A stretch of DNA of 64,000 nucleotides, taken from the IMG/VR virus record IMGVR_UViG_3300043414_000372, positions 96,001 through 160,000 of that record; one strand, written 5' to 3'. The stretch comes from a virus (taxonomy: Duplodnaviria; Caudoviricetes). Of the stretch, positions 383 through 31,643 are shown in pieces. A program made the translations under genes and the position numbers. Every line of letters begins with the position of its first letter. The stretch's first letter is position 1. The notes under the pieces are model-generated. The model was not told the origin of the DNA and did no database searches. It saw nothing but the letters and a program-made list of their open reading frames with translations.

Positions 383-1870
383 TCATTTATATGTAAGTTT
401 TTCAACATCAAATGGATAATTAGCCTCTTTATAAAATGCTTTTCTTTGTGTAAGATGCCGTTTTGCAAACTTACAATTACTTGTGATATCCCAAATCTGA
501 ACAAAGTTCTTATCTTCGGCTTTACGAATACCACGTCCAATACTTTGAATCACCCGAACAAAACTCTTACCCGGTTCAATAAGAACAAGATTAAAGATTC
601 GGGGAATATTAATACCCACTGCTGCCACACCATATGTAGCTATAATGATTTTGTTAGTTGCTGTTGCAACCTCGTCATATTGTTCTTTGCGTTCATCCAT
701 ACCAGTGTTACCTGATACGAATACTACATCATATTCTGTTTTGAAATCTCTAAGTAGTTCGGCTAACCTATTATGTAGTTCTTTACCTGCTGCTACTCTA
801 TCAACTAATATTAATGTGTTGCCACTATTCTTAATCACATCGACCAATTGAGTAATTTTATTTAATCGTTTATCATCTTCAAGCAAATGTTTTAGTTCAG
901 ATTGGTAATTACTAAACTCAACCCCATCTTGTAGTTGTACAATGTTTACATGACATTGTGCCAATACACCTCTATCTTGTAATTCGCTAGCAGATAGTTT
1001 ATTAATAACATTTCCAAGACTGATAAAGATTGCTTGACTTGCGAATTTTTCTTTAGGGATAGTACCAGTTAATCCCCAGCGAATTGGTATGTTGCTCATT
1101 ACACCAGTCAATAATTCTTTTAGTGCGTCGGCCTTGGCCATGTGAACCTCGTCTACCATGACACAAACTACACCTTCCAAGAAGTCACCAATCTCAACTT
1201 CTGCTTCACCTGTTTTTGTTTTCTTAAGCATGTTATTCAGACTTTGCCAAGTACAGATTGTATGTGTCTTATTATATTCTTTTCTATCACCAAAGTATAC
1301 ACCAACGTCTAGTCCAAGATTAATGTAATCTGCTTCTGTTTGTGTTACAAGACTTTTGTTTGGTACGATAACAATACTGCGCCCGTAACTTTCAATAGAC
1401 CAACTTAATGCTGCTGTGATTAATGTCTTGCCTGCTCCTGTAGCAATCTCTTGTAGTGATTGTGGATTTTTTAGAAACTCATTAATGATTGATATTTGAT
1501 AGTCACGCAATACAACTGGTTGACCTTCAATAGGATGACCCTTGGGCCAATTCTTGTGTTTGAACGTAGCCTCGGACACTTCACTAAAATTGAATGTTGT
1601 ACTGTATGTACGAAGGTCCTCTAGTTCAATATCATAGTCTCGGCTATCAATAAAGGGAAGTATTTTGGGTAGTAGATTAACATAGCTACTGCCACCGAGA
1701 CTAAAGAAACTTACCTTACCATTCCATCTACCAAGACGGACCGCGGGAAGATACCTTGCTCCGGGCACTTCGTACTCAAACATCTTAACCAGTGCTTTAC
1801 GCTCGGTTAATTCTAAGCCTTCAATCTTTACATTGACTTCATCCCTGACGATTATTTTACATTGTTTCAT
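383..1870 (-). CDS. uvsW: UvsW-like superfamily 2 DNA helicase
   Basis: LRDYQ Q-motif, ATGAGKT Walker A, DEVH, GLTGT, QSIGRGIR motif VI; T4-like context. Confidence 0.92.
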   Translation of the reverse strand: MKQCKIIVRDEVNVKIEGLELTERKALVKMFEYEVPGARYLPAVRLGRWNGKVSFFSLGGSSYVNLLPKILPFIDSRDYDIELEDLRTYSTTFNFSEVSEATFKHKNWPKGHPIEGQPVVLRDYQISIINEFLKNPQSLQEIATGAGKTLITAALSWSIESYGRSIVIVPNKSLVTQTEADYINLGLDVGVYFGDRKEYNKTHTICTWQSLNNMLKKTKTGEAEVEIGDFLEGVVCVMVDEVHMAKADALKELLTGVMSNIPIRWGLTGTIPKEKFASQAIFISLGNVINKLSASELQDRGVLAQCHVNIVQLQDGVEFSNYQSELKHLLEDDKRLNKITQLVDVIKNSGNTLILVDRVAAGKELHNRLAELLRDFKTEYDVVFVSGNTGMDERKEQYDEVATATNKIIIATYGVAAVGINIPRIFNLVLIEPGKSFVRVIQSIGRGIRKAEDKNFVQIWDITSNCKFAKRHLTQRKAFYKEANYPFDVEKLTYK

Positions 1871-14267: not shown

Positions 14268-15827
14268 TTAACTTAGTACGGCAAAGAATGGTAAGGGTGC
14301 AAGAAATTCCTCGTGGTCCTTGACATAACTGTCCAATTCAAAGTGATATGACCCTAATTCCTGTATCATTCTGACAGATAATAAGCTAGCCATAATCAAA
14401 TCGTCTGTGTCCCCGATCTTAGCAGCATAACTGCCCGCATGTGCTACAAACGCTTTCAATTCACTGATAAGACTACGACTATTTACGGTTAGTTTTTTGC
14501 TTTCTAGTAAGGTCTTAAACTTAGCACAAGCGGTTAGTTTGCTCTTATTAGTAGTGTTAAAGCCCTTGCGCTTCTTGCCGGGTTCGCTAATGAATGTTCC
14601 CGGGATATTGTTTTCACCATATTCATTTAGTGATACTAATGATGCTTCACCGATGCTGTTATTCTCTACCGAATAATAAAGATTGTTTGGTTCACCTGTA
14701 CATTCAACTATGTATTTGTTTATCTGTGCGATAAGTTTAATCTGTGTTGGGATATCAGTTTTGTTATGTTTCCATTCACCGATTTGTGTAACTGTATTTG
14801 CTTCAAATATTTGTATTGCTGCCGGATCACTACCTGTACCAAGACTTGGGTCTAATGCTACTGTATAGATATTGCCCTTAGTTGGTTTTTGATACCAACG
14901 AACTTGTCCCATACGACTGACTGGTTCTATTCCCTCTAGCATTAATAATGTATTAGGATTGATAAGTGTTTCATCAGCGATAATGAATTCACAACCAATC
15001 TCTCGGTTGAAACGATCTTCGCCAAGCTGTGCTTTCATTTCATCAGCCCACTTTTGATCTCTGCCCGGTTGTTCATCCCAACTTGCTCTATATGCTCTAA
15101 AGCCATTGATACCTAATTCAGTAGTATTACCAAATTCATCTTCAGTTTTATTGGCACCTTTCCAGATGAAAGCAAACTGATCCTCATCACTGTTTGGGGT
15201 GCTTGTGATAATAGCTTTACCACCAGTACTTAATGTTGGGGTAATAGCAGTCCAGAATTCTTTGGCGATACTTGGTCTAACGAACGCAAACTCGTCTAGG
15301 TATAGTAATGTAATAGACATACCACGACCTGTATTTTCAGTAGTTGTAGCACTAACAATACGACTACCATTCTCAAAGTCTAATGAGCCTTTGTTATATG
15401 TTGTTACCCCTGCTTTGATGTAGTCTGGACAGTTTTCATATGCGTATCTTACACGCTGCATAATCTCTTGTGCGCCCGTGTACTTATGTGCTGCGATAAG
15501 AATTGTACTGTCTGGTACAAACATGGCGTACCACAGTAAGTACCCAGCAGCACTAGTTGATTTACCTGACTGTCGCGGCATCAAGCTGATACTATAGCGA
15601 TAGTTATGATAAGTATTGATTAATCTTTTCTGAAAGTCCCATGGGTGATATACCATGCTACCTTTTGTGGGATGCTGTATGTAGAAGAAGTTATCCATAA
15701 AGTATAGATAACCTGTGTCAGGATCGCAGCACTTTATAAAGTCCTGCAATTCCTTATCATTTTTAAATTTTGTCTTTGTATAGGGATCTTTAACTAAAGA
15801 TGCCTGTCCTGTTTTTGTCATACTCAT
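14268..15827 (-). CDS. gp17: Terminase large subunit (T4 gp17-like)
   Basis: PRQSGKS Walker A, LYLDEFAF Walker B, TSTPN, ALDPSLG nuclease motif, DDLIMA. Confidence 0.95.
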   Translation of the reverse strand: MSMTKTGQASLVKDPYTKTKFKNDKELQDFIKCCDPDTGYLYFMDNFFYIQHPTKGSMVYHPWDFQKRLINTYHNYRYSISLMPRQSGKSTSAAGYLLWYAMFVPDSTILIAAHKYTGAQEIMQRVRYAYENCPDYIKAGVTTYNKGSLDFENGSRIVSATTTENTGRGMSITLLYLDEFAFVRPSIAKEFWTAITPTLSTGGKAIITSTPNSDEDQFAFIWKGANKTEDEFGNTTELGINGFRAYRASWDEQPGRDQKWADEMKAQLGEDRFNREIGCEFIIADETLINPNTLLMLEGIEPVSRMGQVRWYQKPTKGNIYTVALDPSLGTGSDPAAIQIFEANTVTQIGEWKHNKTDIPTQIKLIAQINKYIVECTGEPNNLYYSVENNSIGEASLVSLNEYGENNIPGTFISEPGKKRKGFNTTNKSKLTACAKFKTLLESKKLTVNSRSLISELKAFVAHAGSYAAKIGDTDDLIMASLLSVRMIQELGSYHFELDSYVKDHEEFLAPLPFFAVLS

Positions 15828-29955: not shown

Positions 29956-30840
29956 TTAGAAATTGTGTTCCATACCCAATGCATACTTAGTAGTTGTTGC
30001 TGTTGCATCTTCTTTGATGTAACGAGCATGAACTGTTGTACGCTTGCTTAAACTATAGCTTGCGCCTAAGTCTAATGCTTTAGTAGTATTGTTCTCGCCA
30101 TAGCTAGCAAGTGCCATCAATGCTGAAGATACTGGTTGATTAACACCAATACTTTTACCAGTTGAAGTTACGCCTGCAACTTTGTCATCAGAATAAGTAG
30201 CGAAAACAGTTGTACCTGTTTTTTCAACCTTAACTCTTGCACCATAGATTGTTGAAGTACTTGTTGTACCGTTATCAAAACTTGCTACAGTAGCACTGAT
30301 TGGACCACGAGTAAATTCAATACTAGCAGCTTGCGGGTTATTAACGCCTGCTACTTCGCTATTGCTATTGATGTAGTTAACAGTTAAACCAGCCATTGGA
30401 GTAGCTGAAACGAACAACGCATTACTGAAACGTGAACCTTGAGCAGCGTGAATGACTGCGGTACTAGAACCGTATACATTACTCATTGCGTCATAGTTAT
30501 CAAGTGTACGTGCGATTGTGTGCTTGTCACGACCAACATTAACTGAACCTAAACTGTTTGACAAACCTACAATCATAGTTCTGTCGCCCAATGTAGTTGC
30601 TGCTGGAGCATCTGCACCGATACCAGTTTCAATTGTGAAGTTAGCAGATAGTCCGCCACCTAATGCTTCAGTACCTTTAAAACCCAAACGACTTGTATCG
30701 TTAGTGAGTGCTGTTACTGCTGACGCAGATCCAACTGTTACTGATTCTTCATACACACGCATTTTACCGTAAACGGCTACTTGTGCTGATGCTGCAAAAG
30801 ATACAGCGGCTAAAATTGTCGCAAGTGCGATTTTCTTCAT
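29956..30840 (-). CDS. Gram-negative trimeric porin (betaproteobacterial type)
   Basis: Signal peptide AASA, V.VYG, SRLGFKGTEALGGGLSANFTIE, C-terminal GMEHNF (terminal Phe). Confidence 0.9.
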   Translation of the reverse strand: MKKIALATILAAVSFAASAQVAVYGKMRVYEESVTVGSASAVTALTNDTSRLGFKGTEALGGGLSANFTIETGIGADAPAATTLGDRTMIVGLSNSLGSVNVGRDKHTIARTLDNYDAMSNVYGSSTAVIHAAQGSRFSNALFVSATPMAGLTVNYINSNSEVAGVNNPQAASIEFTRGPISATVASFDNGTTSTSTIYGARVKVEKTGTTVFATYSDDKVAGVTSTGKSIGVNQPVSSALMALASYGENNTTKALDLGASYSLSKRTTVHARYIKEDATATTTKYALGMEHNF

Positions 30841-30972
30841 ATTAAATTTCCTTTAAAAAAAACCTGATTGCTCAGGCTAGATTAATATTTAGCGGGAGAA
30901 ATACAGTCAAATAAATTATGTATTCTCGCAAAGTAAGTATACTGATTGCGTAATGTATGCTAGTTGATAAAG

Positions 30973-30996
30973 GAAAAGACACCGAAGTGTCTTTTC
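30973..30996 (-). terminator. Terminator closing tmRNA gene
   Basis: GAAAAGACAC-TTCG-GTGTCTTTTC (cUUCGg). Confidence 0.88.
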
Positions 30997-31305
30997 TGGT
31001 TGTTTCTTTTATACAGTAAGTCCTACTGCACCTTAGCCTTAAGCGGCTAAAGAATATAACTCATCGTTTGCAGTTATTGATTTTATGCGATTAACGGTCG
31101 TCATCTACCGAGTTGCCGTCGCTGACTATTTGCCCAATCGATTACCAGAGCAGGCCCATCATAAACACATAACAAGGGTTCCAGTTACGTCATTCTGTTT
31201 ACCACCGTCAAATGACGATACTGCACGGTCTATGTGTTTATGGTGGACCTGGCCGGATTCGAACCGGCGTCTTGAACACATCCTCTTTGAAGGAATTACA
31301 ACTAT
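30997..31305 (-). ncRNA. ssrA: Circularly permuted (two-piece) tmRNA: acceptor piece ~31305-31241, intervening segment 31240-31158, coding piece 31157-~30997
   Basis: T-arm GCCGG-TTCGAAT-CCGGC, CAGGTCC-A-CCA; 5' strand GGGCCTG lies downstream; G3.U70 pair; tag ANDELYSLAA* at 31071-31039. Confidence 0.93.
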
Positions 31306-31313
31306 CTTTTTAT

Positions 31314-31643
31314 TTATCGTTGATAGCAATTACGCTCACGGTAAATTTGACCATCAGGTTGTTGAATCTCTTTCCAAGAAGTACAAACTGTTTGCGGTTG
31401 CTGAATAATAACTTGCTCACGTTGAACAACAACTGGTTGTTGATTGGCATTAGCAATTGCTGCTCCTGCAATTCCGCCGATGATTAATGGGGCTATCCAA
31501 TCATTACGTTCAACAATAACTGTGCGAGGTTCCCAACGAGGTCCGCAATTGTGATGACGATGATCTATTCCCCAACGACAATCTTGGGCAAAAGCCATGG
31601 TACTGACCATTAATGTTACTGCAACCAAAAGTAATTTTTTCAT
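31314..31643 (-). CDS. Small exported protein with Gly-zipper-like segment
   Basis: Signal peptide AFA, IIGGIAGAAIA, Cys pairs. Confidence 0.7.
   Translation of the reverse strand: MKKLLLVAVTLMVSTMAFAQDCRWGIDHRHHNCGPRWEPRTVIVERNDWIAPLIIGGIAGAAIANANQQPVVVQREQVIIQQPQTVCTSWKEIQQPDGQIYRERNCYQR

Follow-up and report, generated by a model that had tools for sequence, protein, structure and literature searches.

Here, we show using covariance models, tmRNA gene prediction and comparison with related viral sequences that an uncultured freshwater phage carries a circularly permuted tmRNA gene, and that selection acts on both its structure and its tag reading frame. The locus is probably a working ssrA gene of a lytic-type freshwater jumbo phage and encodes a divergent two-piece tmRNA of the betaproteobacterial type, whose processing, charging, use in tagging, timing and benefit we infer. 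The DNA analysed is a stretch of 64,000 nucleotides (hereafter the window) that corresponds to bases 96,001–160,000 of a 229,851-bp IMG/VR virus record, which is linear and rated about 61% complete.

A permuted tmRNA gene of the beta type

ARAGORN calls a permuted tmRNA with the tag ANDELYSLAA at 30948–31333 on the minus strand, as the sole RNA gene in the window, and in the entire 229,851-bp record this is the single tRNA or tmRNA gene, with no tRNA gene besides. In an Rfam run at curated gathering thresholds, the best of the tmRNA clan models is beta_tmRNA (RF01850; 137.1 bits, E = 1e-41, with a cut-off of 84 bits), and tmRNA_permuted (RF04321) gives 126.3 bits for the same gene; at these thresholds no other Rfam family, riboswitches included, is found in the 64-kb window. 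The 338-nt precursor has a minimum free energy (MFE) of -112.7 kcal/mol, compared with -83.5 +/- 5.6 kcal/mol for shuffles (z = -5.2). A sequence-only reading of this DNA had proposed a phage-encoded circularly permuted tmRNA with this very tag and had named Rfam and ARAGORN as ways to check it. The two programs agree, with beta_tmRNA as the best covariance match and a permuted tmRNA as the ARAGORN call, and the covariation and the phage setting described below bear the proposal out; on the minus strand, each landmark that the reading had named is present where it had been placed. The parts of the gene are as follows.

31311–31318, minus strand: GATAAATA, a T4-late-type promoter-like box (sequence reading)
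31241–31303, minus strand: acceptor piece (Rfam alignments and ARAGORN)
31303–31299 and 31278–31272, minus strand: helix 2 5' strand, AGUUG and UGUUCAA, in the acceptor piece
31268–31252, minus strand: T arm, with GCCGG (31268–31264), loop UUCGAAU and CCGGC (31256–31252) (sequence reading)
31251–31241, minus strand: 3' acceptor strand CAGGUCC (31251–31245), then ACCA (31244–31241)
31158–31240, minus strand: intervening segment (spacer) of 83 nt, expected to be excised from the precursor
30973–31157, minus strand: coding piece (Rfam beta_tmRNA alignment, MFE fold and family alignment)
31157–31151, minus strand: 5' acceptor strand GGGCCUG, in the coding piece
Within the coding piece, minus strand: D-loop analogue CUCUGGUAAUCGA
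31137–31131 and 31117–31111, minus strand: helix 2 3' strands, UUGGGCA and GGCAACU, in the coding piece
31110–31095, minus strand: pre-tag hairpin of 4 bp (modelled by Rfam)
31039–31071, minus strand: tag reading frame from the GCA resume codon to the TAA stop, ANDELYSLAA (ARAGORN)
31050–31033, minus strand: tag hairpin UUAGCC / GGCUAA
31029–31013, minus strand: post-tag hairpin of 6 bp (family alignment and MFE fold)
30973–30996, minus strand: terminator-like hairpin with a 10-bp stem and UUCG loop, then CUUUAU (palindrome search)

The acceptor stem of the tRNA-like domain has seven base pairs (G1-C72, G2-C71, G3.U70, C4-G69, C5-G68, U6-A67 and G7-C66) and is followed by discriminator A73. 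The domain further contains a T arm with a conserved GGUUCGAAUCC-type loop and the D-loop analogue, without an anticodon arm, and the Rfam posterior is marked by an asterisk at the consensus columns. Helix 2a joins the two pieces by pairing UGUUCAA (31278–31272) with UUGGGCA (31137–31131). The order of the gene is permuted: the CCA end (31241) lies upstream of G1 (31157), with 83 nt in between. This spacer holds no ORF, which rules out a protein gene nested within it. In the coding piece, the resume codon GCA (31071–31069) is preceded by AUAACU and the stop codon is located at 31041–31039.

The length of the coding piece had previously been put at about 160 nt, which falls short of the about 185 nt that separate G1 from the end of the terminator hairpin. 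The reduced 3' domain noted in the sequence-only reading does agree with the Rfam beta_tmRNA model, in which the tag is trailed by just one hairpin and a terminator-like hairpin. The post-tag stem of the model falls on non-pairing bases with low posterior, and the phage has its own hairpin at 31029–31013. In the PK1 region, which separates helix 2 from the resume codon, the 4-bp hairpin (31110–31095) is kept in 7 of the 13 family copies introduced below. A by-eye search for covarying second stems of PK1 and of a post-tag pseudoknot yielded none that was convincing. The U-run that follows the terminator hairpin on the minus strand is short of the tool's terminator rule.

In the middle part of helix 2 (31280–31293, minus strand), the pairs modelled by Rfam include non-standard ones. 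The MFE fold places a local hairpin within the acceptor piece at these positions (UCCUU-CAAA-GAGGA), which is kept as UCCUU-CGAC-AAGGA in the related contig L002. As it is kept there, the phage family may have a three-way junction at the site of a continuous helix in bacterial beta tmRNAs. On the opposite strand, two ORFs overlap the tmRNA gene (31085–31408, plus strand, 107 aa; and 31212–31487, plus strand, 91 aa). Both are most likely not genes, because what seems conserved of them in other contigs falls within the span of the tmRNA gene.

Selection on structure and tag frame

Seventeen IMG/VR contigs contain an identical 25-nt stretch of the tRNA-like domain, and looser patterns add 4 more. 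The resulting family set contains 15 distinct sequences, 13 of them full length, of which 12 are called as permuted tmRNA by ARAGORN; scores against RF01850 range from 88 to 143 bits. All 12 called copies have a tag frame of 10–13 codons that ends in xAA, and in L007, which is without an ARAGORN call, a 10-codon frame was read from the alignment by hand. Tags in the family are ANDELYSMAA, ANDESYRIAA, ANDEAFLMAA, ATAITNEAYALAA, ANAANDEVFALAA, AANDAVWALAA, ANDESYALAA, ANDSAYRLAA and ANDELYTVAQAA.

The base pairs of the tRNA-like domain and helix 2 change in a compensatory manner among the 13 copies. Acceptor pair 4 is C-G in 11 and G-C in 2 copies, pair 3 is G.U throughout (13/13), and the T stem shows two switches from G-C to C-G. 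In helix 2a, one pair is found as T-A, G-C or A-T and another as G-C or A-T. The distal part of helix 2, formed by the 5' end of the acceptor piece and a segment that lies about 40 nt inside the coding piece, exists in four versions (AGUUG/CAACU, UGUUG/CAACA, GAUAG/CUAUC and GACUGU/ACAGUC); per sequence, its duplex energies are no better than those of shuffles, and the support for it is comparative only.

The spacers are 51–92 nt long and unalignable across the 13 copies. In every copy the two spacer ends, ~11 nt at the start and ~11 nt directly before G1, form a closing stem of 9–11 bp (11 bp in the window). Its duplex energy, between -7.2 and -15.2 kcal/mol, is matched by at most 16 of 500 shuffles, and by 0–4 in most sequences. 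The stem leaves ACCA opposite 3–4 nt of the form (U/A)(G/A)AU, so that in the window ACCA and UGAU are unpaired beside the acceptor stem. Position -1 is a U in 13 of 13 copies, the base favoured by RNase P at this position. In the tag frame, the differences between the window and L009 comprise two silent changes (GAU to GAC and UCU to UCC), a conservative Leu-to-Met change (UUA to AUG) and an exchange of the stop codon (UAA to UAG), and the post-tag hairpin CAGUA/UACUG of the window is AGGUA/UACCU in L009. Together, the compensatory pairs, the spacer stem, U-1 and the kept tag frame argue for selection on the gene as a tmRNA whose product is probably processed at its tRNA-like ends and then translated.

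Could the RNA nevertheless be a decoy, which binds host SmpB (perhaps AlaRS or EF-Tu), works poorly and dampens host trans-translation? A precedent exists in mycobacteriophage DS6A, where little is present beyond a tRNA-like domain; such a molecule inhibits tmRNA, and a decoy role has been proposed (PMC4131195, PMC11915505). The tRNA-like domain is also the most rigidly conserved part of the present family, and the phage record is without smpB of its own. The absence of smpB, noted before for the window, extends to the entire record of 229,851 bp (about 61% complete), in which no SmpB, RF-1/ArfB, ClpP or SspB domain is found. The RNA would therefore have to draw on host SmpB, AlaRS, EF-Tu and proteases, for which we assume host compatibility. 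A pure decoy, however, has no need for an mRNA-like part, and here this part is entire, with its resume codon, its xAA frame of 10–13 codons, its stop codon, its tag hairpin and the synonymous changes. Because the coding part is maintained, we regard the decoy as a minor rival, and a decidedly unlikely one, to a tmRNA that takes part in trans-translation.

Possible recombination between phage tmRNA genes

The contigs of the family come from several kinds of phage. Part of them are relatives of the window's jumbo phage, including L014, which is from the window phage's lineage. In L002, L004, L006, L007 and L012, the tmRNA is located near nrdA/nrdB; the NrdA of L006 is closest to that of T4-like phages of Xanthomonas, Ralstonia and Stenotrophomonas, and L141 has a terminase of a different family. 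The tmRNA gene of L007 (565–965, minus strand) looks like a mosaic, as its acceptor piece and post-tag domain show no difference from the window or L009, the region of its pre-tag hairpin matches L014 exactly and its spacer is unrelated. On the L007 contig, nrdA/nrdB are present and none of the proteins is shared with the phage of the window; the mosaic suggests that tmRNA genes of different phages have recombined. At the terminator site, the relatives have a different hairpin (AACCCGC-UUCG-GCGGGUU) with a better U-run.

A more far-reaching reading of these data, which we consider tentative and on the whole unlikely, is that of a phage-restricted lineage of beta-type two-piece tmRNAs, shared by the jumbo PA5oct-like lineage and T4-like phages that carry nrdAB. 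The tRNA-like domain, identical in 17 viral contigs and absent from 185,579 bacterial species genomes, would be frozen in this lineage, and spacer, tag, 3' domain and terminator would be swapped by recombination between unrelated freshwater phages. The gene would then go beyond simple housekeeping and counter the stalling caused by host defences that cut mRNAs or tRNAs, and varied tags (…SLAA, …RIAA, …LMAA and …VAQAA) would tune what happens to the tagged proteins.

Bacterial relatives and origin of the gene

The closest known plan is that of the bacterial beta two-piece tmRNA (RF01850) of Rhodocyclaceae (Dechloromonas/Azonexus, Thauera and Accumulibacter), with which the phage gene shares the gene order, the layout of helix 2 and T arm, a single pre-tag hairpin, a tag of the form ANDE...xAA, a short 3' domain and a terminal hairpin. 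The two differ in their tags, which are ANDE[RQK]FA[LIV]AA in bacteria and ANDELYSLAA in the phage, and identity is about 75% and confined to the tRNA-like domain. The post-tag domain of the phage does not fit the RF01850 model. The phage tag ends in LAA and resembles the proteobacterial ANDENYALAA class. Bacterial beta-type genes that we tested against RF01850 reach 173–271 bits; the 137 bits of the phage gene lie far below this range, which makes it a divergent member of beta_tmRNA.

Where does the gene come from? The 36-nt pattern of the phage's tRNA-like domain has 0 matches in 185,579 bacterial species genomes. A general beta pattern finds 104 bacterial loci, mostly in Rhodocyclaceae and none of them close, and among 401 genomes sampled from a single betaproteobacterial order the best BLAST match is 75–91% identical over 30–64 nt. 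Since these genome scans gave nothing close, the gene is, judged by its sequence, not recently captured from any sampled bacterium. This bears on the possibility that the gene is a passenger or relic, i.e. a captured host gene without a phage role, or one that is kept just as a target for recombination or integration. Such a fate would be in keeping with the frequent use of tmRNA genes as integration sites and with their fragments in prophages (PMC9004378, PMC4383910), but the gene is complete and has been kept, with compensatory changes, by phage contigs of at least three unrelated kinds. Neither the scan of the 185,579 species genomes nor the 401 genomes of the betaproteobacterial order (75–91% over 30–64 nt at best) point to a bacterial source, and we regard a mere passenger as highly improbable.

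Phage setting

The tmRNA gene sits 127 kb into the record and has phage genes to either side. On one side, at a distance of 15–20 kb, these include a T4-type large terminase (window 14268–15827), a gp32-like SSB and a virion protein, and on the other side a phage-type carbamoyltransferase. The terminase is 48–51% identical to those of the jumbo phages Phosso (469 kb) and PA5oct (287 kb), and DNA of the phage occurs in lake and freshwater metagenomes. In an independent viral contig of 69 kb (L010), whose proteins are 46–97% identical to those of the window, carbamoyltransferase, giant repeat protein, two small ORFs and tmRNA follow one another as they do here. The GC content is 0.31–0.41 along the window, without a sharp step at the tmRNA gene. 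IMG/VR records can contain host flanks, and this one is linear and incomplete, but that the gene is bacterial and the contig chimeric or prophage-flanking is very unlikely, to the point of being negligible, because of the phage neighbours, the jumbo-phage terminase, the gene order of L010 and the occurrence in freshwater metagenomes, and is further contradicted by the location of the gene deep within the 230-kb record, by the smooth GC profile and by the clearly different bacterial beta-type genes (tags ANDE[RQK]FA[LIV]AA; 173–271 bits).

Directly downstream of the tmRNA is a porin gene (29956–30840, minus strand, 294 aa) with a signal peptide-like start. It scores 84 bits with the Porin_4 profile and 32 bits with Porin_1, and has hundreds of metagenomic homologues of 55–96% identity, none of which carries an organism name. 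The same porin gene adjoins the tmRNA in L014 and L015. As a Porin_4-type porin adjoins the tmRNA, the gene neighbourhood indicates that the host of the phage is Gram-negative.

Promoter and timing

The GATAAATA box precedes the first helix of the RNA by 7 nt and overlaps the stop codon of an upstream ORF of 109 aa. In the 230-kb record, the motif ATAAATA is present in 83 copies, 43 of which (52%) have an ORF start on the same strand no more than 60 nt downstream, compared with ~3% expected; TTGACA and TATAAT reach just 7–8% in the same measure over the whole record. This pattern is consistent with T4-type late promoters. The strand of the tmRNA yielded no sigma-70-like site in the window. L014 has, in the same place as the window's box, a sigma-70 promoter before the tmRNA that matches in 11 of 12 positions (TTGACA-17-TATACT; 583–611, plus strand), the spacer of which contains the late-like box AATAAATA; the window has the late-like box only.

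Is the tmRNA made late in infection, as the sequence-only reading had it? For the window's phage, late expression is a reasonable guess, suggested by the late-like box and by the association of its motif with gene starts. The proposal does not extend to the relatives, as the near-perfect sigma-70 promoter of L014 means that "late" is not a property of the family.

In an RNA-seq run of a viral metagenome (X24), a contig of 399 nt with a depth of 266 corresponds to a related tmRNA gene (equivalent to window 31105–31355). This contig retains the spacer (29 nt, versus 89 nt skipped in the window), and RNA and carried-over DNA are indistinguishable in it. Searches of sequencing runs gave only small shares in RNA libraries, and the contigs of four RNA libraries include those of relatives only and none from this phage's own RNA.

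Proposed mechanism

How could the permuted gene give rise to a functional tmRNA? Transcription would start shortly before 31303 and run to the hairpin at 30973, giving a single precursor. The paired ends of the spacer would form a stem, by which the tRNA-like domain would be presented as a pre-tRNA; the conserved spacer-closing stem and U-1 predict how the permuted precursor is presented to RNase P. Cleavage by host RNase P after U-1 would give the coding piece its G1, host 3' processing would expose the CCA encoded in the acceptor piece, and the acceptor stem and helix 2 would hold both RNAs together. Since a single transcript has its CCA ahead of the 5' acceptor strand, aminoacylation would be possible only after cleavage, and two-piece processing would therefore be required for any tmRNA function.

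The processed RNA would be charged by host AlaRS, via G3.U70 and A73, and brought by host SmpB and EF-Tu to ribosomes stalled on broken mRNAs, after which translation would resume at GCA and append ANDELYSLAA. The ending LAA is a ClpXP signal in E. coli, and the -LAA end could pass the product to host proteases of the ClpXP type. A likely benefit is additional capacity for ribosome rescue while host mRNA is degraded in infection. We thus favour true trans-translation that adds rescue capacity, with processing and tagging as its presumed steps, and it seems plausible that the putative phage tmRNA function supplements or replaces host trans-translation.

Comparison with known phage tmRNAs

The premise that phage tmRNAs are mostly of the one-piece type, from which the sequence-only reading had started, is out of date. 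A survey found tmRNA in 402 of 18,146 phage genomes, with 53 of 133 distinct forms being two-piece, and 50 of these 53 come from marine or aquatic phages (PMC9004378). Members of this survey include pelagimyophages, cyanophages, Caulobacter phages and the Stenotrophomonas phages Mendera, Moby and YB07, and permuted forms are listed in its Table S1 for phages of Caulobacter, Synechococcus, Pelagibacter, Bordetella and Stenotrophomonas (PMC9004378). The tmRNA database of 2025 contains 79 phage sequences (PMC11915505). Similar to the window's gene, the surveyed two-piece tmRNAs are complete permuted ssrA genes of large aquatic phages without a phage smpB, and the roles proposed for them are those considered here, i.e. 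that hijacked ribosomes are kept working or that proteins are tagged for breakdown (PMC9004378). A two-piece tmRNA has also been described in the Methylophilales phage Melnitz (Buchholz et al. 2022; PMC9004378); this tmRNA is placed there with the alphaproteobacterial type and reported to have a glutamine riboswitch in its 3' part, whereas the best model for the present gene is the beta type and no riboswitch is found in the window.

In blastn, none of 50,697 GenBank phage records matched the 406-nt gene. The isolated Stenotrophomonas phage YB07 (Menderavirus, NC_048755.1) has a permuted tmRNA with the tag VAANDDSYTVRIAA at 77992–78244, within a stretch of about 77921–78295 that corresponds to L143:1430–1804 (plus strand); in the RefSeq stretch 67074–93374 of NC_048755.1 no feature is annotated at this site. 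As for the window's gene, its best model is beta_tmRNA (92.7 bits), and tmRNA_permuted gives 119 bits. It lies just upstream of nrdA, an adjacency that is also seen in the family contigs L006, L007 and L012. Its tRNA-like domain differs from that of the window (GGGGAUG / CAUCUCC, with T stem GCGGG), and it lies among tRNA genes, in contrast to the window's record, which is without any tRNA gene.

In conclusion, phage two-piece tmRNAs are already published as a kind, and the window's copy is an added example, here of a beta-type tmRNA in a freshwater jumbo phage. The value that it adds is modest and consists of the spacer-stem comparison and a hint of a phage-restricted, recombining lineage. 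Together with its ~20 relatives, the gene forms a clean comparative data set. More generally, phage tmRNAs indicate that large phages invest in freeing host ribosomes during infection.
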